NCBI GenBank assembly: GCA_965217775.1
Contig: CBDCJH010000002.1
Location: forward strand, 2,496,001-2,560,000
Origin: Acidobacteriota bacterium
GTDB lineage: Bacteria > Acidobacteriota > UBA6911 > RPQK01 > JAJDTT01
Direction: 5' to 3'
DNA: 64,000 nucleotides
The number at the start of each line of letters is the position of its first letter. Position 1 is the first letter of the stretch. Shown piece after piece: positions 2,645 to 62,289 of the stretch. The notes under the pieces are model-generated. The model saw only the letters and a list, made by a program, of their open reading frames with translations, was not told where the DNA came from and did not search any database. A program made the translations under genes and the position numbers.

Positions 2645-5266
2645 ATGATCAACCGGCTTTATGCTTTCCTGGCCATCGTGTTCTGGTCGCTGCCATTCCT
2701 GACCGGTAGTACTATCGCTACGGAATCGGACGGATCGGTGGTGGGGGCCGCTCTTGAGATTCTGGAGCGGGACTGCCTTGCCTGCCATGGCGTGGCGCGC
2801 CAGGGGGGACTTGATCTGAGCGGGAGGCAAACTCTGCTGGAAGGCGGCCAGCGGGGTCCGGCGGCGATTCCCGGAGACGCCGGCTCAAGCCTGCTGTTTC
2901 TGGCCGCATCCCATGACGGCGAACTGAAAATGCCCCCGGGCGGCTCTCCGCTGACGGCGGCGGATCTGGAGGTCTTGCGCCGCTGGATCGACGCCGGCCT
3001 TCCTTGGACCGGCGTCCGGGAAGACGGCCCCTCCCCACCCTCCTGGTGGTCGTTCCGGAAGCTCCGGCGGCCACCCGTTCCAGAGACGGAAGCGGACGGC
3101 TGGGTCCGGAACCCCATCGATGCATTCGTGCTGGCCCGGCTTCAGAAAAAGGGCTTGAAACCGGCGCCCGAGGCCGACCGGCGAACCCTGATCCGAAGGG
3201 CCTACTTCGATCTCATCGGACTTCCGCCGACGCCGGAGCAGGTGGACCGGCACCTGGAAGACGACTCGCCCGAGGCCTACGGCAAGATGGTGGGCGAGCT
3301 GCTGGAATCGCCACGCTACGGCGAGCGCTGGGCCCGGCACTGGCTGGACGTGGTCCGCTATGCCGACAGCAGCGGATACGAGTCGGACCACTACTACCCC
3401 AACGCCTGGCGGTATCGGGACTACGTCATCAAGTCGTTCAACGAGGACAAGCCCTACGACCGTTTCCTGCAGGAGCAGGTCGCAGGCGACGAGCTCTGGC
3501 CCCAACGATTCGAGCTCCTGGGGAGCCGGACCATTCCCCTGAAGAAGAACGAATACCTGGAAGCACGGGTCGGAACCGGCCTCTACACATTCGGGCCCGA
3601 GGTGCTGGAGTCGATGCAGGACGCCCAGCAGTTGCGCGCCGAGGAACTGACCGATTGGGCGGACACCACCGGCGCCGCTTTTCTGGGGCTCACTCTGGGC
3701 TGCGCCCGCTGTCACGATCACAAAGCAGACCCCATCAGCCAGAGGGACTACTACGCCTTCCAGGCCCTGTTCGCCAACAGCCACAAGGTCGACGTCCCCA
3801 TCATGAGTCCCATTCAGGCGGTCTCGCGGAACATCGACTACCCCGCCGTCATCGCGGTCGACGAAAGGCGTTCCGCTTACCGCCGATTCGAGAAACGGGT
3901 CAAAAAGAGGATCGAACAGGAGAAGAAGGCGCAATTTCCACCGGAAGTGGTGGAAGCCTACGAGACGGACAAGGATCGGCGGACCCCGGAGCAGGAAGAA
4001 TTGGCCAAACCCCTGATGGAGGCGGTCCGTGCCGTCAAATTCGAGGAGGCTCTGACCGAGCCGGAGCAGGACGAACACCAAAAATTGCTTTTCGGGCTGG
4101 CCCGGGCCGTACTCAAGGTCTCCGAGATCGAGGGCTCCAATCTGGTCCGGTTCGAAGGACTGCTTGAGTTACCGACCGCTTCAGTGCTGGATCATTACGA
4201 TCGGGAGGCTTCCGCACCCGTTCACGTCTTGAGTCGAGGCGAGTTCAGACGCAAGGAGGAACGGGTCGGACCCGGCTTGCCGGCGGTGCTGAGCCGGGAG
4301 ACCGATCCCCATGGCGTCTTCTCGGGATCAATGGGGAACCGCCCCCGCAAGCAGTTGGCGCTCTGGCTGAGCCGTCCGGACCACCCTCTCACCGCTCGGG
4401 TCATGGTGAACCGGCTCTGGCAATGGCATTTCGGACTAGGACTGGTGAGAACTCCCAACGACTACGGCCGCCAGGGAGAGACGCCCAGCCATCCGCAACT
4501 CCTGGATTGGCTGGCCGTCGAGTTCACGGCCCGGAACTGGAGCCTCAAGGCGATGCACTGGCTGATCCTGAACTCCAGCACCTACCGCATGTCCAGCTTG
4601 CACGGCGACCCGGCCGCTTACTCGCTGGATCCCGAAAACCGTCTCCTCTGGAGGATGAACCGGCGGCGGTTGGAAGCGGAAATCCTCTGGGACGCCACAC
4701 TTGCGGTGGCCGGCACCCTGAATCTCGGGGTGTACGGCCGTCCGGCGGCGCCGCCACTGGGAGCTGAAGAGATGGAAAGCCTGGGAGGTCCCAAAGGTTG
4801 GCTGACCGTCGCGGACCCCCTCTCCCAATTCCGCCGGGGCGTCTATATCCTCAGCCGCCGCAATCTCCGGTTTCCCATGTTCGACGTCTTCGACAGCCCC
4901 CAGAACGCCGTGAGTTGCCCCCGCCGTGACGTCACCACGGTGGCGCCGCAGGCCCTCTGGTTCCTCAACAACCGGATGGCGTTCCGGCAGGCAGTGGCCT
5001 TTGCGTCCCGACTGGTGGAGAGCGAGGGGGACGACCCGGGAGCCTGGGTGGAGAAGGCGTGGCGGCTTGCCCTGAGCCGGGCGCCGTCCGCCACGGAGAA
5101 GAAGGAAGCCCTGGAACTGCTGTCGGCCCGAGCCCGCGAGGTGAAGGTAGAGAAATGGTTCGAGCTTCCGGCCCAGCTCGAGAAGATTCCACGGCGGCGG
5201 GCCGCAGCCTTGACCCAGTTCTGCCTGGGACTGTTTAATGTCAACGAGTTCAGCCATATTGATTGA
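2645..5266 (+). CDS. Planctomycete cytochrome c + DUF1549 + DUF1553 (PSD1/PSCyt) protein
   Basis: Signal peptide; CLACH heme motif; WVRNPIDAFV, RRAYFDLIGLPPT, YGERWARHWLDVVRYADS, CARCHDHK, HPLTARVMVNRLWQWHFG, RRLEAE, QALWFLN. Confidence 0.9.
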   Translation: MINRLYAFLAIVFWSLPFLTGSTIATESDGSVVGAALEILERDCLACHGVARQGGLDLSGRQTLLEGGQRGPAAIPGDAGSSLLFLAASHDGELKMPPGGSPLTAADLEVLRRWIDAGLPWTGVREDGPSPPSWWSFRKLRRPPVPETEADGWVRNPIDAFVLARLQKKGLKPAPEADRRTLIRRAYFDLIGLPPTPEQVDRHLEDDSPEAYGKMVGELLESPRYGERWARHWLDVVRYADSSGYESDHYYPNAWRYRDYVIKSFNEDKPYDRFLQEQVAGDELWPQRFELLGSRTIPLKKNEYLEARVGTGLYTFGPEVLESMQDAQQLRAEELTDWADTTGAAFLGLTLGCARCHDHKADPISQRDYYAFQALFANSHKVDVPIMSPIQAVSRNIDYPAVIAVDERRSAYRRFEKRVKKRIEQEKKAQFPPEVVEAYETDKDRRTPEQEELAKPLMEAVRAVKFEEALTEPEQDEHQKLLFGLARAVLKVSEIEGSNLVRFEGLLELPTASVLDHYDREASAPVHVLSRGEFRRKEERVGPGLPAVLSRETDPHGVFSGSMGNRPRKQLALWLSRPDHPLTARVMVNRLWQWHFGLGLVRTPNDYGRQGETPSHPQLLDWLAVEFTARNWSLKAMHWLILNSSTYRMSSLHGDPAAYSLDPENRLLWRMNRRRLEAEILWDATLAVAGTLNLGVYGRPAAPPLGAEEMESLGGPKGWLTVADPLSQFRRGVYILSRRNLRFPMFDVFDSPQNAVSCPRRDVTTVAPQALWFLNNRMAFRQAVAFASRLVESEGDDPGAWVEKAWRLALSRAPSATEKKEALELLSARAREVKVEKWFELPAQLEKIPRRRAAALTQFCLGLFNVNEFSHID

Positions 5267-5281
5267 GAAGCGGTTTATTCC

Positions 5282-6751
5282 ATGAATCCCTTCCACTGCC
5301 ATCGCCATGAACCGGCCGGCTCACGACGCGAGTTCCTGAGCAAGTGGGGAATGGGCTTCGGCTCCCTGCCGCTGATCCATCTGCTGGAGCGGGAATCCTT
5401 CTTCCGGACGGCCTCCGCCAAGGGGACCCGGGAATCGATTCCGCACCCGCTCGCACCCAAGCCTCCTCACCAGAGCGCAAGTGGCCGCAACGTGGTCTTC
5501 ATCTATCTCCAGGGAGGCGCCAGCCATGTGGACACCCTGGATCCGAAGCCGGCTCTGACGCGCTACGACGGCCAGAACCTTCCCCAGAGCTTCGCCTCGG
5601 GCGATCTCAATTTCGCCAATATCGCCGCCGGCGAGGCCAAGCTGATGGGTTCGGACATCCCCTTTCGCAGGTACGGGGAGTCGGGGCTGGAGATTTCGGA
5701 TCTCATGCGGAAGGTGGCCACGCACGCCGACGACCTGGCAGTGGTCCGCTCCTGCTACCATGATTCCTTCGTCCACGGTCCGGCGACCAACTACCTCTGC
5801 ACCGGTTCCATCCTCACGGGACATCCCAGCGTCGGGTCCTGGATCCTGTACGGCCTGGGGAGCGAGAACGACAATCTTCCCGCCTACATGGTGATGACCG
5901 ACGGCAACTTGTGGGGCCGGACCAACCGGAACCACTTCGGCTCCGGGTTCCTGCCCGCCATCTACCAGGGCACCCTGCTGCGCTCCGAGGGCGCCCCCCT
6001 CAAGGACCTGACTCCTCCCCAGGAGATGACCCCGGCGGATCAGCGGAACCTCCTGGACTGGATCCGGAAGTCGAACCGGCGGCACTTTCAGAGCCGCTCC
6101 GACGATACCGGGCTGGCGGCTCGCATCTCCAACTATGAGCTGGCTTTCCGCATGCAGACCGCCGCGCCGGAACTCGTCGACCTTTCCGCGGAGCCCGACC
6201 ACATCCGCCGGCTATATGGCCTGGACCAGGAAAAGAGCCGGAAATTCGGGCGGATGTGCCTGCTGACCCGGCGCATGTTGGAACGCGGCGTCCGCTTCGT
6301 ACACCTGATCAGCACCGACTGGGACGGCCACGAGCAATGTTCCCGGAACCATTGGGACAACTCCAGGAAGGTGGACCAGCCCATCGCGGGCCTGCTGCAG
6401 GATCTCAAGCAGCGGGGGCTGATGGAGAGCACCCTGGTGTTCTGTTCGGGTGAGTTCGGGCGGACTCCGTTCGTGCAGGGAAAACTCGGCCGGGATCATC
6501 ACCCGTACGGATTCTCATGTTGGATGACGGGAGCCGGAATCCAGGGAGGGAAGGCCATCGGCGCCACCGACGATCTGGGAATGAAGGCGACCGAGGACAA
6601 GGTTCACGTCCACGACCTGCACGCCACCATCCTCTCATTGCTGGGCCTGGACCACGAAGGACTCACCTACTTCTTCCAGGGACGAGACCGGCGGCTCACT
6701 GACGTGGGCGGATACAACGACCTCTCACGGCAACTACTCCAGCGAAGTTGA
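5282..6751 (+). CDS. DUF1501 family protein
   Basis: Tat-like SRREFL; GGASHVDTLDPKP, YELAFRMQ, RRMLERGVRFV, WDGH, GEFGRTP, GRDHHP, VHVHDLHATIL. Confidence 0.92.
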   Translation: MNPFHCHRHEPAGSRREFLSKWGMGFGSLPLIHLLERESFFRTASAKGTRESIPHPLAPKPPHQSASGRNVVFIYLQGGASHVDTLDPKPALTRYDGQNLPQSFASGDLNFANIAAGEAKLMGSDIPFRRYGESGLEISDLMRKVATHADDLAVVRSCYHDSFVHGPATNYLCTGSILTGHPSVGSWILYGLGSENDNLPAYMVMTDGNLWGRTNRNHFGSGFLPAIYQGTLLRSEGAPLKDLTPPQEMTPADQRNLLDWIRKSNRRHFQSRSDDTGLAARISNYELAFRMQTAAPELVDLSAEPDHIRRLYGLDQEKSRKFGRMCLLTRRMLERGVRFVHLISTDWDGHEQCSRNHWDNSRKVDQPIAGLLQDLKQRGLMESTLVFCSGEFGRTPFVQGKLGRDHHPYGFSCWMTGAGIQGGKAIGATDDLGMKATEDKVHVHDLHATILSLLGLDHEGLTYFFQGRDRRLTDVGGYNDLSRQLLQRS

Positions 6752-7790: not shown

Positions 7791-8006
7791 GTGAAGAATC
7801 AGTTCACGTCCATTATCGAGCGCGACGGAGAGTGGCACATCGCCCATTGCGCTGAAATCCCTGGCGCCAACGGTCAGGGCAAGTCCAAGGTTGAGGCTCG
7901 TGACAACCTGGCGGATGCCATAGCGCTCATCCTCAAGGAACGCCGCGACGAAGGATTGCGCGGTGTGCCCCCTGAGGCCATGCGAGAAACGGTCATCGTC
8001 TCATGA
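7791..8006 (+). CDS. hicB: HicB family antitoxin (short form)
   Basis: FTSIIERDGEWHIAHCAEIPGANGQGKSKVEARDNLADAIALIL; GTG start at 7791. Confidence 0.8.
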   Translation: MKNQFTSIIERDGEWHIAHCAEIPGANGQGKSKVEARDNLADAIALILKERRDEGLRGVPPEAMRETVIVS

Positions 8007-8545
8007 ATGGGACCCGTCTACTCCGATGTCGGCAATTCGTCGCCGGAATCCACCTGATTGCGATCCTGGCTGCAGGCGTGGGGCAGGTGCGGGCAGCCGC
8101 CGAGGTCTATTTGACCGAGATCCGGCTGGATCGGGATCTCTACACCGAGGACGGCCGGCGGTTGGACCGGGGTGGCTTCGATCTGGAAGTCCGGCGCGAG
8201 GAGGAAGGCTGTTCTCTGGTCTTTCTGAAGGGCGAGAAGGTTGTCGCCACCGTCGCCGGCGAAGAGCGCACTGAAACGGAGACGGACCGAATCATTCCCA
8301 TCGTCGGAACCCTTTATCTGCGGTCGACGGCCGTCCCGATAGGGACGGCTGAAGAAAGGCAACTGAGCAAGACGGGCCGGCCCCAATATCAGGACCAGGT
8401 GCAGAACTGGGAGAACACGCTTCGGGCCTTTCGCGGCACGGAAGACGCGGAGGTCCACTTTCTCTTCCAGAGGAGAAAGAACTGGGGTGAATGGGAACAG
8501 GTTCGCTTCAGGCTATACCTGGAGGATCCGGGCGCTGGCCGCTGA
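8003..8545 (+). CDS. Hypothetical exported protein
   Basis: N-terminal hydrophobic signal (IHLIAILAAGVGQVRA-A), globular composition, ATGA overlap with hicB. Confidence 0.6.
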   Translation: MNGTRLLRCRQFVAGIHLIAILAAGVGQVRAAAEVYLTEIRLDRDLYTEDGRRLDRGGFDLEVRREEEGCSLVFLKGEKVVATVAGEERTETETDRIIPIVGTLYLRSTAVPIGTAEERQLSKTGRPQYQDQVQNWENTLRAFRGTEDAEVHFLFQRRKNWGEWEQVRFRLYLEDPGAGR

Positions 8546-8554
8546 CCGCTCCCG

Positions 8555-11308
8555 CTATCTCTCCGGCGCCAGCAAAGTCAGGAATGCGGACTGCATGGGA
8601 TCTTTCGCCAGGAAACGCCGCACCCACCACTGACCGGACTCCGAGGCCACGGCTTCACCGAACATTCTGGCGTCGTTGTCCATGCCTCGGGCGAACCCGT
8701 GTTCGTAGCCGAACCGCAGGGCCGTCAGCGCCAACCGGGCTGCGAACTCGCGAGCAGTCCGCAGATCCTCTGCCGAATCGCCGACGGGCGTCGGTGATTG
8801 CAGGATTCCGTTCACGGCATCGCTTCCGTAAAGCGCGTCCAACTCCCGGCTCTGACTCGTAGCGAGTCGATCCCAATCGGACGCCTGAAATCGGCGCACA
8901 CCGGACCGGAGCTCTTCGGCCACGCGGAACGCCTTGGCAAGAGCGGTGCCGGAGGGATGGAACTGGTGGGCCAGCCCGATCCGCACCGCCGTTCGTCCGT
9001 CCACCGACTCTCCGTTGACCGCCATTTCGGCGGCTCGCCGCGGCCCCACGAGTCTCGGAAGCCTCTGCATACCTCCGTATCCGGGGATGATGCCGAGCTT
9101 CACCTCCGGCTGCCCGATGACGGCATTTTCGGTGACGATTCGATAGTGGGTGCTCATGGCCAGCTCGTTGCCGCCCCCCAGCGCGAAGCCGTCCACGATC
9201 GACACAACAGGAAGCGGCAGGGTTTCCAGCCGCCGGAAAAGCGCCATGTTCTCCGCCGCCAGACGCCGGATAGACTCCGCGTCCCCGCCCACGAAGCCTT
9301 GGACGTCGGCCCCCGCCACGAAGGCCCGTCCCGAGCCGCGCAGAATCAGGGCGGTCGTCTTTTCTCCGTGGAGGGTTCCGTTCGCTCCGAGCTCTTCTGT
9401 CAGTTGGGCAAGCTGGTCCAGAAGTTCCTGATTGAGGGCGTTCAAGGCGTCCGGCCGCTGGAGGGTGAGGATTCCCACTTCGTCGATCAGGCTCAAGGCG
9501 ATGAACCGGCCGTTTTCCGGGTCGGCCTCGCGGAGCGTCTTGCCCAGGTACTCGGCTTCGTAGTCGGAGATCCTCCGGCCTGCGGCGTCCGCCTGAACCA
9601 GCGCCACCCCCTTGGGTTTCGCCATGGTGCCGTCCAGCATCTTCTGCTGGATCTCCGGCAGTCCGGAAAGGCTCACCACCTCCAGGTCCTCCTGGTCCAT
9701 GACGATTCGATTCCGGGCCAGCAGTCGGACCGTCTCCCGAGCCTGGGCCGCTCGATACATGTGGGAGCCGGAGACGGTCAGGTCGTACGACCCGCGGGCG
9801 ACGACGACGCCGCACGACATCTCGTCCTTCTCGTCATGGTCCCTCAGCAGGAATGTGCTCACGTGCAGCGTACTCTGATCGGGCCGCTCCACGATGAAGT
9901 CCGGATTGACCCGGGGACCGAAGACCGCCCAAATGGCCCGCCCGAGAGCGCGGGCGTCCAGCATGAAGTCCGACATGTAGGCGGGATTCGGGGTTCCCTC
10001 GCCGGTCAAGGGGTCCGGCATGTCGGCGGGTAGACGGAACCGATCGCGATCGATGACCTGCGACTCGGTGAGGCCCAGCCGGTACAGAGCGGCCAGCCCC
10101 TCCGCTTCCCGGGAACGAGAGGCGACCACCACCAGGTCCGCCCGCCGCTGCAGCGCCGCCTCGACGAACTCCCGCGCGTACCGGTCGGCGCCCCAGACCA
10201 GCCCTCTTCGCCCCGGCAGCAGGCCGATCTCCGAGAAGATCTCCGCCGGGGTCCCGCTCCGAAAGAGGACCTGTTTCTGGCGCATCCAGACCCAGCGGGC
10301 ATCCAGAACGAAGCGCCGTCCGTCGTAGAAGAAGGTCTCCTTGTACTCCCCCTTGAGGCCCCGCCCGGTGGCGCCGAAGAAGGCGAGTCGTCCATTCGGG
10401 CCGAGAACCGATACCAGAAGAGGAAAGTTGGCGCCCCCGGTATGCTCGAAGACCGTGTCCACCGGCCGGCCTTCGTTGGCGGCCAGCACGATCCGGCGAA
10501 AGGGCTCGGTCCGGGCATGCCACCGGTCATACTCCTCCTCCACGTCGACCACACCGAAGACTTCGGCGGGGATCTGCCGCCGGTCGACGAAGGCGTCGGC
10601 GATTCCCCGTTCGATGAGGGATCGGCCCAACTTCGGATTGGAACCCATCAGGACGACGCGGGCTCCGAGGGCCTTTCCCAGTTGCGCCGCGGCGAAGCTG
10701 GTTCCCTTCCCGCCTCCCAGGACCAACATCGAATCTCCCGGACCGACGGCCAGACGTTCCACGACGGTGCGGTAGGCCGTTCCGTACGTGAGCAGCATGG
10801 CCGAAAGCTGCTCGGGACTGTGGCCGCCGAGGGACGGAGGGACCGGTATGGCCCGCTCCTCGTCCACCAAGGCGAACTGGGCGTTGAAGCCGTCGTGGGT
10901 CTCGTAGCCGCGGATGTTGTGGCCGGTCCAGGAATCGAGAATGACGGCCTGTCCCACCTTCACCGACCGGACCGCCGGGCCCGCATCCACCACGATGCCC
11001 AGGGCGTCGCTTCCCGGAATGTGCAGGGTGGCGCTGTCGCCCCGGCCGAAGACGGGAACCGGCAGCCCCAGAGCCGCGAAATTGGTATTGAAGTTGGGTC
11101 CGCTGGCCAGCACGGATACGAGGACACCCCGGGCGTCGGCGGAGCTCAGGCGCGGAACCTCGACCTGCTCCAGGCGGACCACGTCCCGGGGCGGACCGTA
11201 TCGGTCCCGGTACAGGGTCAGCGCGTGCATCCGTTTCGGAATGGACCGGGCCAGAGTCGGACAGAAGCCCAGCGGCCAGGGCGTATCGGGGCGATCAGCG
11301 GCGGTCAC
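8555..11308 (-). CDS. Fusion of Ccr/Pcs-type enoyl-CoA (carboxylase)/reductase (MDR) and enoyl-CoA hydratase (crotonase)
   Basis: N-part: GPNFNT, HIPGSDALGIV, IRGYETHDGFNAQF, LTYGTAYR, DARWVWMRQK, GSHM. C-part: RPDALNAL, AFVAGAD, ALGGGNELA, GQPEVKLGIIPGYGGMQRLPRLVG. True start may be ATG at 11230. Confidence 0.85.
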   Translation of the reverse strand: MTAADRPDTPWPLGFCPTLARSIPKRMHALTLYRDRYGPPRDVVRLEQVEVPRLSSADARGVLVSVLASGPNFNTNFAALGLPVPVFGRGDSATLHIPGSDALGIVVDAGPAVRSVKVGQAVILDSWTGHNIRGYETHDGFNAQFALVDEERAIPVPPSLGGHSPEQLSAMLLTYGTAYRTVVERLAVGPGDSMLVLGGGKGTSFAAAQLGKALGARVVLMGSNPKLGRSLIERGIADAFVDRRQIPAEVFGVVDVEEEYDRWHARTEPFRRIVLAANEGRPVDTVFEHTGGANFPLLVSVLGPNGRLAFFGATGRGLKGEYKETFFYDGRRFVLDARWVWMRQKQVLFRSGTPAEIFSEIGLLPGRRGLVWGADRYAREFVEAALQRRADLVVVASRSREAEGLAALYRLGLTESQVIDRDRFRLPADMPDPLTGEGTPNPAYMSDFMLDARALGRAIWAVFGPRVNPDFIVERPDQSTLHVSTFLLRDHDEKDEMSCGVVVARGSYDLTVSGSHMYRAAQARETVRLLARNRIVMDQEDLEVVSLSGLPEIQQKMLDGTMAKPKGVALVQADAAGRRISDYEAEYLGKTLREADPENGRFIALSLIDEVGILTLQRPDALNALNQELLDQLAQLTEELGANGTLHGEKTTALILRGSGRAFVAGADVQGFVGGDAESIRRLAAENMALFRRLETLPLPVVSIVDGFALGGGNELAMSTHYRIVTENAVIGQPEVKLGIIPGYGGMQRLPRLVGPRRAAEMAVNGESVDGRTAVRIGLAHQFHPSGTALAKAFRVAEELRSGVRRFQASDWDRLATSQSRELDALYGSDAVNGILQSPTPVGDSAEDLRTAREFAARLALTALRFGYEHGFARGMDNDARMFGEAVASESGQWWVRRFLAKDPMQSAFLTLLAPER

Positions 11309-11321
11309 AACGCGCGAATCG

Positions 11322-12668
11322 TCAGATCAATTCCGGGATGGGCTGCCCCATGGTGTCGTCGAAACCGTTGGCGATGTAGACGGGACGTCCAACGGGAGCC
11401 ATGTAGGTCTTGGTCCAATCGATACCCAGCGCCTTGTAGATGGTGGCGTAGAGGTCGCCGATGGAGATCGGGCGTTCCGCAACGAAGGCGGCCCGGTCGT
11501 CGCTGACGCCGATGACCTGCCCCCCTTGGATACCGCCGCCTCCCAGGGCCAACGACCAGCAGTGGGGCCAGTGATCCCGACCCAGGCCGGGATTGATGTG
11601 GGGAGTCCGCCCGAACTCACCCATGACCAGCACCACCGTCGATTCCCACAGACCCCTCTGTTCCAAATCTTCCAACAGCGCGGAGAGCGCCTGGTCCAGG
11701 GGAGGCGTCAGGTCTTCCTTGAGCCGCTTGTCGTTGCTCCCGTGGGTGTCCCACTGCCCGTGCTTGTAACCGGCCGCCGTGACGAAGCGGCACCCGGCCT
11801 CCACCAGGCGGCGGGCCATCAGCACGCTCTGGCCGACGCGGTGGCGTCCGTACGCGTCCCTGGTCTTCTCCGATTCGCTGGAGAGGTCGAACGCCTTCTG
11901 GACGTGAGACGAGAGGATCATGCCCAGTGCCTGCTCGCGGTAAGTGTCCATCTTGCCGAACTCGGCCACCTCCTGGGTGGCCCGGTAATGCCGGTCCACG
12001 ATGCTGAGCAGGGTCTTCCGGTCTTCGATGGCCGCGGCGGAGACCGATTTGGGCAACCGGAGGTCGGGTACGACATATTCCTCGCCGCTGGGATCCGGCA
12101 GGACCATGGCGTCGTACTCGGCGCCGATGTACGAGCCCTTGAAGGCCTCCTCGTAGTTGTAGAAGTCGTTTTCCCAAGGCATGGGGACCGTGGTGAACGG
12201 CGGCATGCCGTTGCGGGGACCCATTTCCTTGGCCACGATCGAGCCGACCCCGGGGAACTTCATGGTGGGGCTGGGCCGATGGCCGGTGAGGGACTCGATG
12301 GTTCCCTGGGGGTGGTTGGTCTCCTGCGTCCGCATGGACCGGATCAGCGAGAGCTTGTCCAGGTGCCCGGCCGTCCGGGGCAGGAGTTCGGAGATGCGGA
12401 TGCCGTCGACGTTGGTGTCGATGGAGCCGAAGTTGGTGTTCCCCTTGGGGTCCCAGGTGTCCATCTGGCTGGGGCCGCCCTCCAGGAAGAGGAGAATGCA
12501 CGCCTGCGCCTGGCCCGCGGGAGGTTTGGCGCCGGCCGCTGCCTGGAGACGTTCCAGACTGAGGAGGTCGCCGGCGTTCATCCCGAGAAAGCTCAGGGAA
12601 CCTACGCGGAGGAAGTCGCGGCGCCCGAGTTTGGTCCGCCTGCATTGGAAACATCTATATTCGTTCAA
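11322..12668 (-). CDS. DUF1501 family protein
   Basis: Tat motif GRRDFL; GGPSQMDTWDPK, ARRLVEAGCRFV, WDTH, GEFGRTPHIN, GRDHWP. Confidence 0.92.
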   Translation of the reverse strand: MNEYRCFQCRRTKLGRRDFLRVGSLSFLGMNAGDLLSLERLQAAAGAKPPAGQAQACILLFLEGGPSQMDTWDPKGNTNFGSIDTNVDGIRISELLPRTAGHLDKLSLIRSMRTQETNHPQGTIESLTGHRPSPTMKFPGVGSIVAKEMGPRNGMPPFTTVPMPWENDFYNYEEAFKGSYIGAEYDAMVLPDPSGEEYVVPDLRLPKSVSAAAIEDRKTLLSIVDRHYRATQEVAEFGKMDTYREQALGMILSSHVQKAFDLSSESEKTRDAYGRHRVGQSVLMARRLVEAGCRFVTAAGYKHGQWDTHGSNDKRLKEDLTPPLDQALSALLEDLEQRGLWESTVVLVMGEFGRTPHINPGLGRDHWPHCWSLALGGGGIQGGQVIGVSDDRAAFVAERPISIGDLYATIYKALGIDWTKTYMAPVGRPVYIANGFDDTMGQPIPELI

Positions 12669-12690
12669 CTTTCCTTCTCCGTCAGTCCTT

Positions 12691-12771
12691 GGAGGGGCGA
12701 CGTTGCGGTCGTCCGTTCCTTATTTGGCCCATTGTTGCATTGGAGTCCGGCGGCAAGAAAGCCGCCGCTCC
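12691..12771. repeat. Inverted pair of GGAG-type REP-like palindromes
   Basis: GGAGGGGCGACGTTGCGGTCGTCC (12691-12714) and the reverse of GGAGCGGCGGCTTTCTTGCCGCCG (12748-12771), in an intra-operon spacer. Confidence 0.6.
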
Positions 12772-12777
12772 CGTTCC

Positions 12778-15363
12778 TCAATGATTGTATGCAAACTCCC
12801 GCGAGCTGATTAGGGCCCACATCAGGTTCGCCAGTTGCTCCGGCCGCGGGGAGGACCCCTCTCGGACATACGCTTCCAGGTCGGATCTTTCCCGTTCGGT
12901 CGGATAGCGCGAAAGCGCTGCCAGGTAGAAGTCTTCGATGATCCGGGCATCGGACAGGCCTTCCCGCAGCGCCCGGTCGAGACGTCCGCCCTCCTGGGTG
13001 ATTTTGGTCGTATAAGTCGACCCCGCCCACATGTGCAGGGCCTGGGTCAAGGTCAGGGACGGCTTTTCCGGAAGCGACTTGCGCATGGACCGTCCGTAGA
13101 CGTTGAGGAAATGGCAGGGAAACAGTTCGGGAATCAGGTCGATGGCGCGGGCCCCCGGACGAGCCGCGCCGGTGCGCACGGTCTTGGGGTGCACCGGGAA
13201 CTCCTCCGGGACCCCGGTGGCGTGGGAGATGGCGTCCAACAGGACGGTGGCCTGCAACGGCCGGGCCAAAGCCCGCGCATAGTTGATTCCATCTTCCTGG
13301 TTGGTCCGGTTGGGGACTCCCGAAGTCTGGTAGGTCCGCGACCGGACGATCCGCCTCATCAGGTGCTTCAGGTCGTAGCCGTGCTCCACGAAGTCTTCCG
13401 CCAGCGCCGACAGCAGCTCGGGATGGGTCGGCGGGTTGGATACCTTGAAATCGTCCACAGGGTCCACGACTCCCCGGCCGAAGTAATAGCCCCAGACCCG
13501 GTTCACGACGGTCCGGGCGAAGGCGGGCTGGGCGATGATCCAGTCGGCCAGAGCCAGGCGCGGATCGCGCTCCTGTTCCCCTGTCGGGAATGACCCGTCC
13601 AGGAACCCGGCCCGGACTTCTTCCTTCCGGCGTGGATGGACGGTTTTGATGCCCTCCCGTTTCAAGTCGTAGGATCGCCCACCCTCCGGATTGTCGAAAA
13701 CCAATTGGGAATCCAGAAGTTGCGTGACGTTGCCGAAAAAGGCGGTCATTCCCCAGAACTGGTCCTGGCTCCAGGTCTCGAAGGGATGGTTGTGGCACTG
13801 GGCGCAATCCAGCCGGCGCCCCATGAAGACGCGGACCTGCTCGGCCATGATCTCGTGCGGCACGACCAGTTCGGTATAACGAAAAAAGTGACGGGTGGGA
13901 GCCGCGTACCCCTGAGCGGCGATACGTTCCCGCGCCATGCGGTCGTAGGGCTTGTTCTGGAGGATGCCGTTGCGGACCCAGTCGCCGTATGCCTTGACCT
14001 CCTTGAGCGAGCCCACGGAGGTGTAGGTCACCCGGAACAGGTCCCCGAACAGGAAACTCCAATAGTCCACGTACTGGGGAGAGTCCAGGAGAGTCTCGAT
14101 GAGCTTGTCCCGTTTCCGCGGGTCGCGGTCGGCCAGGAATTCCCGGACGCGATCCGGCGGCGGAAGGGTGCCGGTGATGTCCATACAGACGCGGCGCAGG
14201 AATTCCGAATCGCTGGAAAGCGCAGAAGGACGGATCTGGAACTTTCGCAGTTTGGCGAAGACGTGCTCGTCGATGAGATTGCGGGGCTCGATTCTGAAGT
14301 CGACTGGGGCCGACGCATCCACGACTCCGAAGCGTGCGCTGACGGCATGACCGGCGGTGCGGACCAGCACCGTCGTCTCTCCCCTTCCGGCGGCCGTGAC
14401 CCGGCCGTTTTCGTCGACCGTCACGACGTGGGGGTTCTGGGAGACGTAGCGAGCCTGGTGACTGATGTCCTCGCCACGGCCGTCGGGTCCGTAGGCGGTC
14501 ACCAGAAGCTGCTGGACACCCTTGCCGTCCAAGACGGATTCCTGCGGGAAGACCGTCACCCGGACTATCCGCCCAGCTTCATTTCGGTCGCCATATTCGG
14601 CCCCTTCCCGGATCCAATCCAGAAGGGCGGCGTAGTCCGCAGAGCCGGCGTCGAGGCGCTCACCGCCGCCGTGGATCACCTGCATGGCGGCCTTTTGCAG
14701 CAGCAGGCTCTCCTCCGGACGCTCCGGATTCACGCGCGGCACCCGCGGACCGCCCGATTCCATGACCAGGACCTGGTAGATCCCCCCTTTCACGATCCAC
14801 TCGTGGTCCTCTTCCGGATAGAGAGCGTCGAGGGAGAGCTTGAGACCTCCCTTTCCCTTGACGCTGCCGTGGCACTCGCTGGCGTTGCAGCCCCGTTTGG
14901 TCAGTATGGAGGCGATATCGCGGTCGAAACGGAAGGGTCTCTGAGCCGCGCCGGGATCGATTCGAATCCGGGACTGGGCCTCGCGCCCCCCGATCCGGGC
15001 CCGGAGAGTCACCTCGCCCGGCGCCAGGGCGACGACCCTGCCGGCGTCACCCACGCGCGCCAGTTCGGGATCGGAAATTCGAAGCCGGCTGTCCGAGGTC
15101 AGATCCCTCTCCAGACCATCGGCGAACGTCCCCATGACGACGAAACGCCGGGCAGCCTCCGGACCCGTCAAGTGCGCCTGCTCCGGGACCAATCTCAGAG
15201 CGAGCAGTGTCGGGGAGTGGCTCGGCGCCGGCGCCTCGAAGGCGGCCATCGCGCAAACCAGGACTGAGGAAACGACGATGACCGTCGAGCAGAGAATGGG
15301 GCCGGGCCTCCGCCCGCATCGATTCCATTGGGAAGTGATCCAATCGGACACCTGGACCTTCAT
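12778..15363 (-). CDS. DUF1549/DUF1553 protein with Ig-like (Big_2) domains
   Basis: GCNASECHG, NLIDEHVFAKL, EFLRRVCMDITGTLP, RLDCAQCHNHP, FARTVVNRVWGYYFGRG, HPELL, QALH. ATG at 15363 overlaps the upstream stop (ATGA). Confidence 0.88.
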   Translation of the reverse strand: MKVQVSDWITSQWNRCGRRPGPILCSTVIVVSSVLVCAMAAFEAPAPSHSPTLLALRLVPEQAHLTGPEAARRFVVMGTFADGLERDLTSDSRLRISDPELARVGDAGRVVALAPGEVTLRARIGGREAQSRIRIDPGAAQRPFRFDRDIASILTKRGCNASECHGSVKGKGGLKLSLDALYPEEDHEWIVKGGIYQVLVMESGGPRVPRVNPERPEESLLLQKAAMQVIHGGGERLDAGSADYAALLDWIREGAEYGDRNEAGRIVRVTVFPQESVLDGKGVQQLLVTAYGPDGRGEDISHQARYVSQNPHVVTVDENGRVTAAGRGETTVLVRTAGHAVSARFGVVDASAPVDFRIEPRNLIDEHVFAKLRKFQIRPSALSSDSEFLRRVCMDITGTLPPPDRVREFLADRDPRKRDKLIETLLDSPQYVDYWSFLFGDLFRVTYTSVGSLKEVKAYGDWVRNGILQNKPYDRMARERIAAQGYAAPTRHFFRYTELVVPHEIMAEQVRVFMGRRLDCAQCHNHPFETWSQDQFWGMTAFFGNVTQLLDSQLVFDNPEGGRSYDLKREGIKTVHPRRKEEVRAGFLDGSFPTGEQERDPRLALADWIIAQPAFARTVVNRVWGYYFGRGVVDPVDDFKVSNPPTHPELLSALAEDFVEHGYDLKHLMRRIVRSRTYQTSGVPNRTNQEDGINYARALARPLQATVLLDAISHATGVPEEFPVHPKTVRTGAARPGARAIDLIPELFPCHFLNVYGRSMRKSLPEKPSLTLTQALHMWAGSTYTTKITQEGGRLDRALREGLSDARIIEDFYLAALSRYPTERERSDLEAYVREGSSPRPEQLANLMWALISSREFAYNH

Positions 15364-17276
15364 GACGACGATTGGGAGTCCCCTTCCCCGGAGTTGCTCT
15401 CCGGATCGGCCGGTGCGACCACCATCAGCGGAACTTCCAAGACGGGCAGGTCCGCGCCGACCCGTCCTCCGACCACGGGTCTGGCGGTGATCCGAATCCA
15501 CTCGGGCATGCGGGTCACCGGAGCATCCGGTTCGGCCAGAAGGACCAGGGTCGTCTTCTGTATTCCGGGCAGGAAACTTTCCTCCTGTTTGCTGACGGGT
15601 GCGGAACTCTTCTTCTCCACGTCGGCACCCGGGAAGACCTGGACACCGGGCGGCAGGTTGGAACAGGCGAAGAGGACTTCACCGGCAAAGCCTTCTTCCT
15701 GGTGAGTGACGATGCTCAGCTTTCTGGCTATTCCCGGGACCAGGTTGATGCGTTCGACGGGGTCCACGTCGAAGGCCCCGACATGGGGAATCGGGGTTCG
15801 AACCAGCAACCGGTACTCGTAGTCCGGGCCGCCGTACCGCGAGGTGACGTCGCGAACCTCCACAAAGAACCGGCCGCTTCGCTCCAGCGTGTAGGCCATC
15901 TTGGGTTCGACCGTCTTCAAGAAGGAACTCGGAATACCGCCGCCGTTGTAGATCGTTCCATACTTGTGGACGTTGGCCAGCACCGAACCACCCTGGTCTT
16001 CGTACAGCTCCACGCGCGGATTGAAATGGGGCGGCCCCACCCGCGGCGTCGCCAGCTCGAGAATCAGTTGGGTGCCCGCCTCCCCCTCGAAGCTGTAGGT
16101 GTCGCGGTCGCCCGGGGCGCCGATAGTGCCGTCGATGAGCTCCCCTATGGAAGCCGGCAACGCCTGTCCGCGCAGCTCGTTGGGCTCCCGCTCCAGCAGC
16201 CGGGCCAGACCCTGGGGGGTTCGATCCGTCGCCGACGGCGTAGCATCCGGGGAGACCGCCAGGCTGCCGGCCCCGGTGGCCGTCTCGCGGCCTTGGGAAC
16301 GCGGCTGCTCCTGGAGGACGGTCCGGGATCGGAGACGGTCGGTCCAATCGGCCTCGATCTTCCGGGTGAAGTGCCGTTCGGTCCATGTGGGTTCAGACGT
16401 TGCCTGTGGAGCCGGGCCGGCGGTCAGAACCCGAAGCTGATAGCCACAGTCGGGGCCCCCTTTTCCCAAGAGCGACGCAACCTCCAACAGGTAGCGTCCC
16501 GACTCCGCCACACGGTAGGAGAAACGGTGCCGAACCGGAATCAGGTCGGAAGACACCTGCTCCCGGAAAAGGAGCCGGGTGGGACGGTCGGGATCGAGCC
16601 AGCTCCCGGTCGGCCGGTAAAGGGCAACCCGGGGCTCGAAGTGTGCGGCCTGGGTGATTACGAAGGTCAGCTCCTGACCGGCAACCGCGTCGAACCGATA
16701 GGCGTCCAGTTCGCCATGCTCGCCGATACGGCCGTTGACGATGACAGGGAGGTCGATCTCCTGCGCCTGCCGGGCCGATGGATGTGGGGTTTCGATCTCG
16801 CTGGTGACGGTGTCTTCGTCGACCCGGAAATGGAGCGCGTTGGAAACCCCTCGAGGAGAAACCAAGCGAAACCGATGGGTTCCGGCGGGAACCGACGAGT
16901 CCACGGTGAGGTGCGCCGTCACTCGAAAGAGGGGGTACGATTTCTTCTTGGGAGACGGGCGTGCCGGTTCCCGCCTCTCAAGCTGCTCGACTTCGCCGAC
17001 CTGAGCCTCCAAGCCGGCGGAACCGAAGACAACCGAATAGGCGCCGTCCAGCGCTTCCCCCCGGATCTCGAGTTCGATCCGGGATCCCTGCTGCCCGCCG
17101 GGAGGAAAGACCGAGATCAACGTCGGCTCGGGAAGGGCCTCATCGCCGGAGGATTGCGCCTGGAGTCGGCCCGTGGACGAAACGAACCACAACAGCGCGA
17201 TACAAGCCACCCCGAAGAAAAACGAACCGAGTCCGGAGAACCTGGGACGGTTGCAGTGTTGCCGGCGTTTCACCAC
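15360..17276 (-). CDS. PPC (pre-peptidase C-terminal) domain protein of the DUF1549/DUF1501 cluster
   Basis: Signal peptide; SVFPPGGQQG, GVSNALHF, LPVIVNGRI...DAYRF, EREPNE, DRDTYSF, GGPDYEYRL. Confidence 0.82.
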   Translation of the reverse strand: MVKRRQHCNRPRFSGLGSFFFGVACIALLWFVSSTGRLQAQSSGDEALPEPTLISVFPPGGQQGSRIELEIRGEALDGAYSVVFGSAGLEAQVGEVEQLERREPARPSPKKKSYPLFRVTAHLTVDSSVPAGTHRFRLVSPRGVSNALHFRVDEDTVTSEIETPHPSARQAQEIDLPVIVNGRIGEHGELDAYRFDAVAGQELTFVITQAAHFEPRVALYRPTGSWLDPDRPTRLLFREQVSSDLIPVRHRFSYRVAESGRYLLEVASLLGKGGPDCGYQLRVLTAGPAPQATSEPTWTERHFTRKIEADWTDRLRSRTVLQEQPRSQGRETATGAGSLAVSPDATPSATDRTPQGLARLLEREPNELRGQALPASIGELIDGTIGAPGDRDTYSFEGEAGTQLILELATPRVGPPHFNPRVELYEDQGGSVLANVHKYGTIYNGGGIPSSFLKTVEPKMAYTLERSGRFFVEVRDVTSRYGGPDYEYRLLVRTPIPHVGAFDVDPVERINLVPGIARKLSIVTHQEEGFAGEVLFACSNLPPGVQVFPGADVEKKSSAPVSKQEESFLPGIQKTTLVLLAEPDAPVTRMPEWIRITARPVVGGRVGADLPVLEVPLMVVAPADPESNSGEGDSQSSS

Positions 17277-17475
17277 TCGGAGCTTTCCGGTTGTTGACTG
17301 AGAAGTGATTTCGAATCATACCACTTTGCCCCGGCAACAGCGAATTTCCAGGACTTTCCCCATTTTTTTGGGGGAACTCCTGTGAATTTCGCCGGGACCG
17401 AAGATGCGTTATCTTCATCCAAAACCGACGGGCGTGAGCCTCTTTTCTCCGATTTCTCGCCTTCAGGGACAGAAG

Positions 17476-20001
17476 ATGAGTCACACGACGGCTTGGCGAG
17501 GATGGTTTCCTTCCACTGCGGGATGGATCCTTACGCTGGTTCTTCTTCTAACGACCGGAAATCCCCTGGTGCAGGCCTGCGACGACGGCCGGGCGGTGCC
17601 GAATCCGAAGAGTAATCCCGGCCTGGTCGAGGACTGCAAAGCTCTGCTGGCCGCTCGTGACAAGTTGGACGGGGCTGGATCCCTGAACTGGAACGCGGGT
17701 TTGCCCATTAACGATTGGGAAGGAATCAGGGCCACGGGGACGCCGGCACGCGTCACCAGGATTGAGATCTTCGGCAACCGGTTGAGGGGACGGATCCCGC
17801 CGGAACTGAGCCGACTGTCCCATCTGCGGTATTTGGATATCTCCGACCATCAGTTGACGGGAGGGATCCCGGCAGAACTTGGACAACTGTCCCGGCTCAC
17901 GAGTTTACTGCTCAACTCCAACGGACTGACCGGAGAGATCCCAGTCGAGTTGGGCCAGTTGTCTCAGCTAGGGCAGTTGTGGATCTACGAAAACCAGCTA
18001 ACGGGAGGGATCCCAGTCGAGTTGGGGGAACTCACGCGGATGAACGCGTTGAACCTCTCCGACAACCAACTGACGGGACCGATCCCGGCGGAGTTGGGTC
18101 AACTGTCCCGGCTACACAGTATGCGGCTCGGTGAAAACCGGCTCACGGGACCGATTCCGGGTGAATTGGGTCAACTGTCCCGATTGCTGGTGTTGCACCT
18201 TTTCTCGAACCGGCTGACGGGACGAATTCCGCCGGAGTTGGGTCAAGTGACGGGGATGACCTGGCTGGAGCTTCACGACAATCGTCTGACGGGACCGATC
18301 CCGAAGGAGTTGGGGCGGTTGAACAATCTGTCCTCAATCGATCTGTCGTCGAACCAGTTGACGGGAGCGATTCCACCGGAGTTGGGCCAGATGACCCGGT
18401 TGGGGGGATTGAATCTCTCCGACAACCGGCTGACCGGATCGCTCCCGGGCGAGTTGAGCCAGTTGACCCGTCTCGGTTCGTTGAATCTCTCCCACAACCA
18501 GTTGACGGGACCGATCCCGGCCGAGTTCGGCCAACTGACCAATCTGGCTTACCTGGACCTCTCCGACAACCTGTTGACGGGACCGATCCCACCGGAGCTG
18601 GGTGGCCTCACCCGGTTGGAGTGGTTGCACCTCCACAACAACCGACTGTCGGGGTCGATTCCTCCGGAACTGGGCCAACTGACCGGACTCTGGCAGTTGC
18701 ACCTCCAGCACAACCGGCTGACCGGACCGTTCCCGGCTGAGCTGGGCCGACTGACCCGGCTGCAGGAGTTCAGCTATCTGGGCAACCAATTGACGGGACC
18801 GGTTCCCGCACGGCTGAGACATCTGCCCGACCTGTACGTGTTGAACTTGAAGGCGAACTGGGTGGGTCCGGGCCGCGTAAAGGTGACCTGGGACGACCCC
18901 GGCGATCCCACGGTCACCTACGAGTTCCGTCTCTGGTCCCTGACCCTCCGGGACTGGATCCCCAGGAAGGAGATTCCGGAGACGGCGTTGACGGCCGGGG
19001 AAGGCTTGACCATCGAATCCACATTGACGGATCTGCCGGCCGCTGCCCGCTACACCACCATCGCGGTGCGGGCGATCAACAAGGACGGTCCCGGCCGGGA
19101 AGCACGGGCCCCGGTGGAATCGCGCGAGATTCTCGACGACACGGACGACGACACGAGTCAGGAGCCGGACGCGGACCCCTATTGCCGCTCCCTGTGGGAC
19201 GGGGAGCCCTGTGCCACTGCCGCCGTCCTTCCCCACGTCTTCATGGGGCCTCTCGGGGAGAACGTCGCCGAAGCTGAAATACTCATCACCCACCGGAGTC
19301 TTGAGCCTCAGGCCTGCGACGTCGCATTGCTCTTTCATCGGGGGACGTCCGATGCTCCGGAGATCCTTTTCGACCACCAGACGATTGCAGGGAATCTTCT
19401 CCAAGCCACCGTTCCAGCGGGAGGAGCCCGAATCCTGACCTTGACGGCGGATGCGGCGGACCTGGTGGTCGGCGCGGTCTCGGTTTTCGTCCGCTCTCCT
19501 TGTGCGGCCGACTCGCTGCAGGTTCAGGGATGCTACCTGGTGGAGAACCCGGCGGGGGGCGAGATTCAGGAGGTCTTTTCCGTTTCGGGCCAATCTCCCG
19601 AGGAATGGCTGCGAGACGGGGACTGCCAGGTCTTGACCGGAGTCTTCGGCCCCGGACGGGATCTGGGTCTCGCTTACGTGACCACCGATCCCCAGCGAGA
19701 AGCTCCCGAAGGCGCTCGACTCCTTTTTCGCTCCTTCGATCTGGAAGGGAACCCCCTGGACCACCCGTTCAGTAGCCTGGAGATCACCGGGGAACAGACC
19801 GCTTCGTTTCCGTGGAGCTTCGGGGAGCCCACCATCATCGAGATCTGCCTGGAGGTTCCGGGAACGGACAGCGAATTCCGGATCTCCACCATCGCCATCG
19901 GAATCGTCCGGAAGGGAGGCAACGTGCAGTGGAGTGATGAAGCCGTCGTGGACAGGTACGGGTCGGAAAACCCCTCGGCGTGGTCGGAATCCGGACGTTG
20001 A
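17476..20001 (+). CDS. Secreted plant-type leucine-rich repeat protein (15 x 24-aa LRR) + FN3-like domain + C-terminal module
   Basis: LxxLxLxxNxLTGxIPxELGxL x15, N-cap (DCKALL...LNW...WEGI), signal peptide. ATG at 17476 preferred; ORF opens at 17404. Confidence 0.92.
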   Translation: MSHTTAWRGWFPSTAGWILTLVLLLTTGNPLVQACDDGRAVPNPKSNPGLVEDCKALLAARDKLDGAGSLNWNAGLPINDWEGIRATGTPARVTRIEIFGNRLRGRIPPELSRLSHLRYLDISDHQLTGGIPAELGQLSRLTSLLLNSNGLTGEIPVELGQLSQLGQLWIYENQLTGGIPVELGELTRMNALNLSDNQLTGPIPAELGQLSRLHSMRLGENRLTGPIPGELGQLSRLLVLHLFSNRLTGRIPPELGQVTGMTWLELHDNRLTGPIPKELGRLNNLSSIDLSSNQLTGAIPPELGQMTRLGGLNLSDNRLTGSLPGELSQLTRLGSLNLSHNQLTGPIPAEFGQLTNLAYLDLSDNLLTGPIPPELGGLTRLEWLHLHNNRLSGSIPPELGQLTGLWQLHLQHNRLTGPFPAELGRLTRLQEFSYLGNQLTGPVPARLRHLPDLYVLNLKANWVGPGRVKVTWDDPGDPTVTYEFRLWSLTLRDWIPRKEIPETALTAGEGLTIESTLTDLPAAARYTTIAVRAINKDGPGREARAPVESREILDDTDDDTSQEPDADPYCRSLWDGEPCATAAVLPHVFMGPLGENVAEAEILITHRSLEPQACDVALLFHRGTSDAPEILFDHQTIAGNLLQATVPAGGARILTLTADAADLVVGAVSVFVRSPCAADSLQVQGCYLVENPAGGEIQEVFSVSGQSPEEWLRDGDCQVLTGVFGPGRDLGLAYVTTDPQREAPEGARLLFRSFDLEGNPLDHPFSSLEITGEQTASFPWSFGEPTIIEICLEVPGTDSEFRISTIAIGIVRKGGNVQWSDEAVVDRYGSENPSAWSESGR

Positions 20002-62134: not shown

Positions 62135-62172
62135 CACCTTCCGGGGGGTCGGGGACAGGTGAGGATTGCGAC

Positions 62173-62289
62173 GTCGGGCACCCGTTGTGGGTGCCCGTTG
62201 TTGCCCCCCGCTGATCGGCGCAGGGAGGGCAACCACACAAGGGTTGCCCCCACGAGCCCGGGGAGGGCGACCACAAGGGTCGCCCCTAC
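62173..62289. repeat. Cluster of three GTAG-type REP palindromes in the 5' leader of giant gene 2
   Basis: GTCGGGCACCCGTTGTGGGTGCCC; reverse GTGGGGGCAACCCTTGTGTGGTTGCCCT; reverse GTAGGGGCGACCCTTGTGGTCGCCCT. Same family as the REPs near 6827 and 7069. Confidence 0.8.

Follow-up and report, generated by a model that had tools for sequence, protein, structure and literature searches.

Propionyl-CoA synthase (Pcs) is the textbook multi-domain enzyme that sequesters a toxic intermediate, and it carries its ligase, hydratase and reductase domains on a single chain. In the archaeal 3-hydroxypropionate/4-hydroxybutyrate (3HP/4HB) cycle and in Rhodobacter, the same two reactions, dehydration of 3-hydroxypropionyl-CoA and reduction of acrylyl-CoA, are catalysed by separate polypeptides: 3-hydroxypropionyl-CoA dehydratase and acrylyl-CoA reductase in the archaea, AcuH and AcuI in Rhodobacter. 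Reductases of the AcuI/YhdH type are another branch of the medium-chain dehydrogenase/reductase (MDR) proteins and are not known to have the pocket of crotonyl-CoA carboxylase/reductase (Ccr). Consecutive acyl-CoA steps are also fused in FadB/MFE1, in which the partner of the hydratase is a 3-hydroxyacyl-CoA dehydrogenase that lies C-terminal to it. The gene described here, from a 64,000-nucleotide stretch of an Acidobacteriota genome (contig CBDCJH010000002.1; the whole stretch is called the window below), encodes a 917-aa protein, P0001, in which an MDR enoyl reductase is instead N-terminal to the hydratase and no ligase is present.

It is proposed, with a probability of about 0.5, that P0001 is a bifunctional enzyme converting 3-hydroxypropionyl-CoA through acrylyl-CoA to propionyl-CoA by plain reduction. 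As judged from its sequence, it would work like Pcs minus the ligase but is no Pcs, nor is it a Ccr by the curated model. From the domain identities, the conserved residues and the gene links in relatives, we infer the substrate, reaction direction, cofactor, enolate fate and channelling as follows. The C-terminal crotonase would remove water from a short 3-hydroxyacyl-CoA, most likely turning 3-hydroxypropionyl-CoA into acrylyl-CoA; the N-terminal, NADPH-dependent reductase would add a hydride to C3 of acrylyl-CoA, and the resulting enolate would be protonated to give propionyl-CoA. With the ligase domain missing, a separate enzyme would activate the free acid. By joining the two steps, the fusion may let an irreversible reduction pull an unfavourable dehydration and prevent the reactive acrylyl-CoA from accumulating.

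Layout of the fusion and its relation to Pcs and Ccr

The gene and the parts of its product are as follows.

8555..11308, minus strand: whole gene of the 917-aa reductase-hydratase fusion P0001; GTG start, stop codon at 8555-8557
10754..11278, minus strand: N-terminal catalytic (GroES-like) part of the reductase, residues ~11-185, with WPLG 11-14, NFNT 72-75, GSD 99-101 and GYET 134-137; low AlphaFold2 (AF2) confidence at 54-148
11084..11095, minus strand: NFNT, residues 72-75; by alignment N74 is Ccr Asn81 (the CO2 anchor) and T75 is Ccr Thr82
10898..10909, minus strand: GYET, residues 134-137; by alignment Y135 is Ccr Phe170 and E136 is Ccr Glu171
10253..10753, minus strand: first Rossmann domain, residues ~186-352, with GGGKGT 198-203, VDTVFEHTGGANFP 283-296 and WVWMRQK 339-345
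9773..10252, minus strand: second, degenerate Rossmann-like domain, residues ~353-512, with GLVWGADRYA 369-378 and NPDFIVERPDQSTL 468-481; present in Pcs-type reductases, not in Ccr
9539..9772, minus strand: return to the catalytic domain, residues ~513-590, with GSH 514-516 (H516 is Ccr His365), then M517
8909..9520, minus strand: crotonase core, residues ~597-800, with GGGNEL 711-716 (catalytic E715) and QPEV 733-736 (E735)
8558..8908, minus strand: C-terminal helical extension of the hydratase, residues ~801-917, aligning with Pcs 1100-1213 and with the FadB-type hydratase linker

The third-position GC of the gene is 0.82. In Pfam terms, residues 90-157 are ADH_N, 206-318 ADH_zinc_N and 611-882 ECH_1/ECH_2, and the crotonase (597-917) comes after an enoyl-CoA reductase of the Ccr/Pcs type (1-~590). 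The ECH_1 match of 143.2 bits, against a gathering threshold of 27, makes the C-terminal part a member of the crotonase family PF00378. An earlier note, made from the letters alone, had described a Pcs-like reductase joined in reversed order to a hydratase, without a ligase. Pfam finds no AMP-binding, AMP-binding_C or ACAS_N domain in P0001, as the note had claimed for the ligase; these domains are seen in the Pcs-type proteins P0156, P0170 and P0180. Each of the motif strings on which the note relied (NFNT, GYET, VDTVFEHTGGANFP, NPDFIVERPDQSTL, GSH, GGGNEL and QPEV) occurs exactly once in the protein.

Among solved structures, the top sequence match of P0001 is the Pcs of Erythrobacter sp. 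NAP1 (6eqo, E 1.9e-48), which aligns in two stretches, P0001 611-903 with 6eqo 906-1203 (hydratase) and P0001 35-489 with 6eqo 1265-1727 (reductase). The hydratase precedes the reductase in 6eqo and follows it in P0001, and the reversed order is therefore real. The same entry is ranked first by Foldseek for the AF2 model of the whole protein (E 7e-22, 638 columns), a model with a pLDDT of 76.7 overall and below 50 at residues 54-148. P0001 shares with Pcs (6EQO, and that of Chloroflexus) two homologous catalytic domains, namely a crotonase with two catalytic glutamates and an MDR enoyl-CoA reductase in which an additional Rossmann-like domain separates the nucleotide-binding fold from the GSH/GTH strand, as well as a C-terminal helical extension on the hydratase and, as proposed here, the conversion of 3-hydroxypropionyl-CoA via acrylyl-CoA to propionyl-CoA. 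Unlike Pcs, it has no ligase domain and its domain order is reversed, and its identity to five ligase-bearing Pcs-type proteins is 26-30% in the reductase and 32-39% in the hydratase.

Both catalytic glutamates that the earlier note assigned to the crotonase, E715 (GGGNEL) and E735 (QPEV), are invariant, being found in 121/121 stand-alone and 48/48 fused homologs (169/169). Including its helical extension, the domain superposes best on Pcs 885-1213 (VIA Z 35.8, rmsd 2.6, 303 residues). The next best fold matches are FadB-type domains (Z 30-34, top 34.2), and the crotonase plus helical linker of FadB/MFE1 is near-equivalent to that of P0001. The Metallosphaera protein 5zai, an example of the separate archaeal enzymes, is among the best sequence matches (E 1.4e-33).

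The best NCBIfam models for P0001 all fall under their cut-offs: the Ccr model TIGR01751 scores 173.4 bits against an equivalog cut-off of 378.55, and short-chain enoyl-CoA hydratase models are likewise below theirs (for example, PRK07658 with 169 bits against 313). With Ccr/Ecr (Kitasatospora setae; Methylorubrum extorquens, 4GI2), P0001 shares the pocket residues as well as the second-shell Thr and Ser; its N-terminal 347 residues have ~32% identity to a Ccr-like protein, and no solved structure matches the reductase alone better than 4gi2. P0001 differs from Ccr in its second Rossmann-like domain of ~160 residues, its fused crotonase and its failure to reach the TIGR01751 cut-off. Residues 11-347 match 4gi2 (M. 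extorquens Ccr) with 105.9 bits and the whole reductase matches Pcs with 67.9 bits; by these scores, the first 347 residues are no further from Ccr than the entire reductase is from Pcs. The description of the reductase as Pcs-like holds for the extra Rossmann-like domain but not for T75, S515 and WVWMRQK, which are Ccr-like states at positions where Pcs-type proteins differ.

The CO2 pocket and the second Rossmann-like domain

In K. setae Ccr (KsCcr), the CO2 pocket is made up of Asn81, Phe170, Glu171 and His365, and the second-shell residues Thr82 and Ser119 orient Asn81 (accessible text of PMC6628652). In P0001, N74 corresponds to Asn81, T75 to Thr82, S100 to Ser119, Y135 to Phe170, E136 to Glu171 and H516 to His365. 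The mapping is fixed by the numbering of the 3krt alignment (N85, F174, E175, H369), which is that of K. setae with a constant offset of +4, and for H516 the position comes from the alignment of AntE to the second reductase segment. The CO2-binding candidates put forward in the earlier note do fall on the pocket, N74, Y135, E136 and H516 aligning with all four of its positions and being near-invariant in homologs. N74, Y135 and H516, together with M342 and M517 and with the glycines G198 and G202, are found in 121/121 stand-alone homologs, E136 in 120/121, S100 in 119/121 and T75 in 117/121; the fused homologs that cover the pocket positions (44-48) agree. By alignment, Tyr at the Phe170 position is native in M. 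extorquens Ccr 4gi2 and in AntE. The acyl-pocket lining residues are large (I132, M517), as in the short-chain Ccr 3krt (Ile171, Phe370), and these positions reportedly set the chain length in work on CinF and Ccr.

Pcs-type sequences have NFND where the P0001 family has NFNT, and some have GTH where it has GSH. The Asp that follows the Asn in Pcs, at the place of T75, we take to be Asp1302 on the numbering of the 6eqo alignment. On these residues the pocket of the P0001 family seems nearer to that of Ccr than to that of Pcs. The segment WVWMRQK follows the first Rossmann domain in the P0001 family, whereas the corresponding WMRQK follows the second Rossmann-like domain in Pcs-type proteins; one ancestral duplication followed by reciprocal decay would seem to account for this difference.

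The internal duplication claimed for the reductase is upheld by Ccr-like proteins that align to it twice, and is not recovered when its halves are compared directly. The Ccr-like P0270 (431 aa) aligns with P0001 13-347 through its residues 22-353 (E 2.6e-37) and again with P0001 363-579 through its residues 208-418 (E 9.5e-13); AntE and 9kva likewise align to both segments, more weakly. Predicted secondary structure in the AF2 model has two successive beta-alpha-beta domains, at 193-350 and 368-514. Compared with each other, the two Rossmann halves give no significant match, either by BLASTP (E 0.86) or by hhalign on 28 family rows (E 0.058, probability 0.9%, though in register), and the second copy reads GLVWGADRYA at the place of the first copy's LVLGGGKGTS. 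The duplication is a tandem second Rossmann-like domain, a copy that is therefore old and degenerate. An extra domain of this kind is also found in Pcs-type reductases and in other related architectures.

The pocket brings into view the strongest alternative, that the reductase is a true reductive carboxylase, in which the enolate would attack CO2 held by N74 and by water bound to E136 and H516, taking 3-hydroxypropionyl-CoA through acrylyl-CoA to (2S)-methylmalonyl-CoA and bypassing the ATP-dependent propionyl-CoA carboxylase. This is possible but rather unlikely. It is favoured by the presence and near-invariance of all four Ccr pocket residues, by a Ccr-like second shell (T75 and S100, against NFND and GTH in Pcs-type proteins) and by WVWMRQK standing after the first Rossmann domain, as in Ccr. 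The tyrosine, native in M. extorquens Ccr and AntE, is no obstacle, as KsCcr accepts Tyr in place of Phe170 and the hydroxyl is without effect on carboxylation (PMC6628652, accessible text). However, the four-residue test is insufficient because Pcs carries the same residues, yet its carboxylation is described in reviews as only promiscuous or latent (PMC10176493 and PMC10266731, in their accessible parts). Nor is Thr versus Asp decisive, since the KsCcr T82D variant still carboxylates (PMC6628652, accessible text). The extra Rossmann-like domain between the WMRQK and GSH segments could bear on the exclusion of water from the pocket, and the AF2 model is unreliable in just this catalytic domain (residues 54-148, pLDDT <50).

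Relatives, giant fusions and gene neighbourhoods

The homolog search returned 487 proteins at E<=1e-3, of which 120 were listed. All 120 are 888-982 aa long, are 62-92% identical to P0001 over 97-100% of the query and have ECH and ADH Pfam domains; at 50% clustering the family has essentially a single full-length representative, P0017. In the genome collection, 141 relatives were confirmed and 79 loci were kept. Their labels include Acidobacteriota (closest, 91-93%), Actinomycetota, Desulfobacterota, 'Deltaproteobacteria', Deferrimicrobiaceae, Methylomirabilis, Gemmatimonadota, Chloroflexota, Hyphomicrobiales, Accumulibacter and others. One such label is probably a binning error: an acyl-CoA ligase is 97% identical, and neighbouring genes are 89-93% identical, between L015 (labelled Limnocylindria) and both L017 and L038 (labelled Deferrimicrobiaceae). 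Occurrence in all 120 listed homologs and in the 79 loci disposes of the possibility, raised in the earlier note, that the fusion is a read-through artefact. Among 40 relatives of the source genome, the gene is present in 8/8 of the same genus, 0/6 of the sister genus and 2/26 of the rest of the order. Because identity is high across phyla and presence is patchy, the distribution suggests horizontal spread. In the source annotation the homologs are named only 'enoyl-CoA hydratase-related protein' or similar. The literature search found no description of such a reductase-hydratase fusion or of the giant fusions described next, although papers on Pcs structure and carboxylase engineering might still mention one.

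Of 50 longer homologs (E<=1e-20), two are ligase-bearing Pcs-type proteins and the other 48, 2033-2647 aa long, consist of the reductase-hydratase unit and a C-terminal extension of the short-chain dehydrogenase/reductase (SDR) type. These giant fusions (P0123 and P0272-P0318; loci L043, at 8001-15754, L027, L056, L064, L069, L077 and others) have first ~890 residues orthologous to P0001, at 57-68% identity, and ~1650 residues more than P0001, comprising a ~540-aa stretch and then four SDR-like domains. The ~540-aa stretch between the hydratase and the first SDR has no Pfam match at E<=1 and no protein-atlas match above 0.83. P0001 itself is without such an extension, and no giant fusion is found in the source genome with the queries used. 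The extension also lies directly downstream of the gene in 16/79 loci (12/61 of the loci with at least 3 kb downstream). The lineages with giant fusions are uncultured Desulfobacterota-like bacteria, Deferrimicrobia, Actinomycetota and Gemmatimonadota, and the proteins are currently named just 'enoyl-CoA hydratase-related' or 'SDR family oxidoreductase'.

The top solved matches of the extension are malonyl-CoA reductases (Mcr; 8hjw, E 4e-29, then 8hi4), with the halves swapped relative to Mcr so that the C-type half comes first: 547-758 corresponds to Mcr 584-791 and 1097-1318 to Mcr 3-215. Its AF2 model, in which four Rossmann-like units are predicted, is mediocre (pLDDT 61.9), and only fold ranking and motifs were used; all 24 Foldseek matches listed in ranks 1-25 are Mcr entries, at TM-scores of only ~0.3. 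Two YxxRxxY motifs, Y168-x-x-R171-x-x-Y174 and Y728-x-x-R731-x-x-Y734-x-x-x-K738, are invariant in 11/11 sequences. In Mcr, this motif in SDR3 and SDR1 binds malonyl-CoA and malonate semialdehyde (PMC10470521, accessible text). With four predicted tandem SDRs and YxxRxxY in the two putatively catalytic ones, the extension has the make-up of an Mcr, and the giant fusions would combine on one chain all but one of the five steps between malonyl-CoA and propionyl-CoA.

Other partners recur near the relatives. A divergent ADP-forming acyl-CoA ligase is present in 10/79 loci (8/54 of those with at least 3 kb upstream); its first NCBIfam match is the archaeal acetate-CoA ligase, followed by the archaeal 4-hydroxybutyrate- and 3-hydroxypropionate-CoA ligases, all below cut-off. 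A CoA-acylating (methyl)malonate-semialdehyde dehydrogenase (MMSDH; TIGR01722, 692 bits, above cut-off) lies just downstream in 5/79 loci, and PntA, for NADPH supply, is found in 17/79. Based on these sequence assignments, the Mcr-like fusion, the ADP-forming ligase and the MMSDH point to a tie between the unit and the metabolism of malonyl-CoA, malonate semialdehyde and 3-hydroxypropionate.

In 3/5 giant-fusion genomes there is a strong match to the HpaB_N family (L091, at 2698-4155 on the minus strand; G041:C7; G042:C8), and the one protein tested matches the 4-hydroxybutyryl-CoA dehydratases 1u8v (E 1e-96) and 6vjr (E 5e-94). This co-occurrence hints at a bacterial route like the 3HP/4HB cycle. 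A match to the malyl-CoA lyase family (PF03328) is present in 2/5 of the giant-fusion genomes, a count that says nothing either way. Related architectures were seen elsewhere: P0319 (2377 aa) has crotonase, ligase, reductase and again crotonase; in P0149 (6910 aa) a reductase followed by a crotonase is embedded in a giant multidomain protein; P0172 (711 aa) joins a reductase to a MaoC dehydratase; and P0151 and P0166 represent a second, distant (31-33%) reductase-hydratase family.

Function, alternatives and genomic setting

The two-step dehydratase and reductase of the earlier note, and its suggestion that acrylyl-CoA is the intermediate, gain from the relatives in which the unit is fused to an Mcr-like module or stands beside an ADP-forming ligase and MMSDH. 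The link that these partners make with the metabolism of malonyl-CoA, malonate semialdehyde and 3-hydroxypropionate is why a C3 substrate is favoured here for P0001, with plain reduction of the acrylyl-CoA that would form from 3-hydroxypropionyl-CoA.

A number of observations weigh against the proposed conversion to propionyl-CoA. The pocket residues are more Ccr-like than Pcs-like (T75 rather than Asp, GSH rather than GTH), which favours carboxylation, and C3 and C4 substrates are inseparable by sequence. The reductase is below the TIGR01751 cut-off and only 26-30% identical to Pcs reductases, and with such low scores and identity the transfer of function spans a long distance. Gene neighbourhoods are unconserved across most loci, all 79 of which are metagenome-assembled genome (MAG) records, and the immediate neighbours of the window gene are DUF1501/PSD1 genes. 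The source genome has no ADP-forming ligase (E<=1e-10), and tblastn finds in it neither a ligase nor PntA nor an Mcr-like protein (E<=1e-8) and no homolog of the 4-hydroxybutyryl-CoA dehydratase AbfD (E<=1e-5); the genome is 97.9% complete and these negatives hold for the queries used.

A broader proposal, that the P0001 family is by nature an acrylyl-CoA carboxylase/reductase joined to its dehydratase, producing methylmalonyl-CoA straight from 3-hydroxypropionyl-CoA, and that, in the lineages with the Mcr-like module, the ADP-forming ligase and the 4-hydroxybutyryl-CoA dehydratase (3/5 genomes), such proteins form the core of an unrecognised bacterial 3-hydroxypropionate-type route for CO2 assimilation or as a redox sink, saving one ATP per turn, is unlikely.

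A C4 substrate is more doubtful still. Here (S)-3-hydroxybutyryl-CoA would be converted through crotonyl-CoA to butyryl-CoA or ethylmalonyl-CoA, the protein being a fused crotonase-Ccr for carbon from acetoacetyl-CoA or polyhydroxybutyrate (PHB), or for a route of the ethylmalonyl-CoA type. The N-terminal 347 residues are indeed nearest to a genuine Ccr (4gi2, 105.9 bits), short-chain crotonases (5z7r; PRK05809) are among the top matches of the hydratase, one of the two MM_CoA_mutase-family genes in the source genome could encode an ethylmalonyl-CoA mutase, and one carrier genome is labelled Accumulibacter, an accumulator of polyhydroxyalkanoates (PHA). Nevertheless, what the relatives carry as partners, the Mcr-like module with YxxRxxY and MMSDH, is specific for C3, and in a Pfam scan of 15 loci no gene of the ethylmalonyl-CoA pathway turned up as a neighbour.

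Supply of unusual extender units for secondary metabolism (AntE/CinF-like), some other unrelated role, or a decaying or misassembled fusion is very improbable: AntE is among the best solved matches, the relative P0149 (31% identity) lies inside a giant multidomain protein and L011 has an NRPS-like gene ~2 kb downstream, but no biosynthetic cluster is found around the gene itself or around most loci, the size of I132 and M517 in the pocket speaks against bulky substrates, and artefact or pseudogene status is excluded by near-invariant catalytic residues in 169 homologs, 62-92% identity across phyla and presence in 8/8 same-genus genomes.

For the source organism, the genome contains an MMSDH homolog (53% identity) and the two methylmalonyl-CoA mutase (MM_CoA_mutase-family) genes, and no CoA ligase is found within the 64-kb window. 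It is more likely that the enzyme converting 3-hydroxypropionyl-CoA to propionyl-CoA would serve there in the assimilation or detoxification of CoA esters derived from 3-hydroxypropionate or acrylate than in a cycle. The other features of the window are as follows.

11322..12668, minus strand: DUF1501 protein, upstream neighbour 13 nt away, with no functional link evident
2645-6751, plus strand, and 11322-15501, minus strand: two PSCyt/PSD1 (DUF1549/DUF1553) and DUF1501 pairs flanking the P0001 gene; the second pair ends 13 nt before it
17404-20001 and 20147-22744, plus strand: two tandem 865-aa leucine-rich-repeat proteins
31443-47312 and 47642-62350, minus strand: two adjacent giant paralogous genes (5289 and 4902 aa) with SWM_repeat (8 and 6 stretches), fn3, Glug, RGI_lyase and Big_5
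29922-30272, minus strand: PemK/MazF-type toxin gene, with a small overlapping ORF at 29667-30002, plus strand
2037-2366, minus strand: separate HI1420-type antidote gene

The giant paralogous pair at 31443-62350 probably encodes huge surface or adhesion proteins; eukaryote-like repeat proteins, such as those of the leucine-rich-repeat kind, are often noted in host-associated bacteria. A scan of 7800-15800 gave no promoter-like sites and three terminator-like sites against 4.9 expected, none of them between the DUF1501 gene and the P0001 gene. Four RNA-library runs, from two studies, contain contigs that cover the gene or one closely related to it (X16 and X17 mostly 95-99% alike, X18 and X19 ~92%), one contig of 2930 nt spanning 8518-11441; such contigs may derive from DNA, cannot prove transcription and were not used as support.

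The existence of a widespread ligase-less form with swapped order marks the dehydratase-reductase pair as a conserved functional core, and proteins of the P0001 type would be a smaller and simpler system in which to study acrylyl-CoA channelling. Retaining the full Ccr pocket, including the second-shell Thr that is lost in Pcs, makes P0001 a candidate acrylyl-CoA carboxylase, an activity that has reportedly been obtained so far by engineering Pcs. Judging by the giant Mcr-like fusions, a part of the 3-hydroxypropionate route may occur far more widely than annotation shows. As judged from its sequences, the family appears widespread, conserved and unannotated, with a chemistry that is itself familiar and an activity that may be useful.

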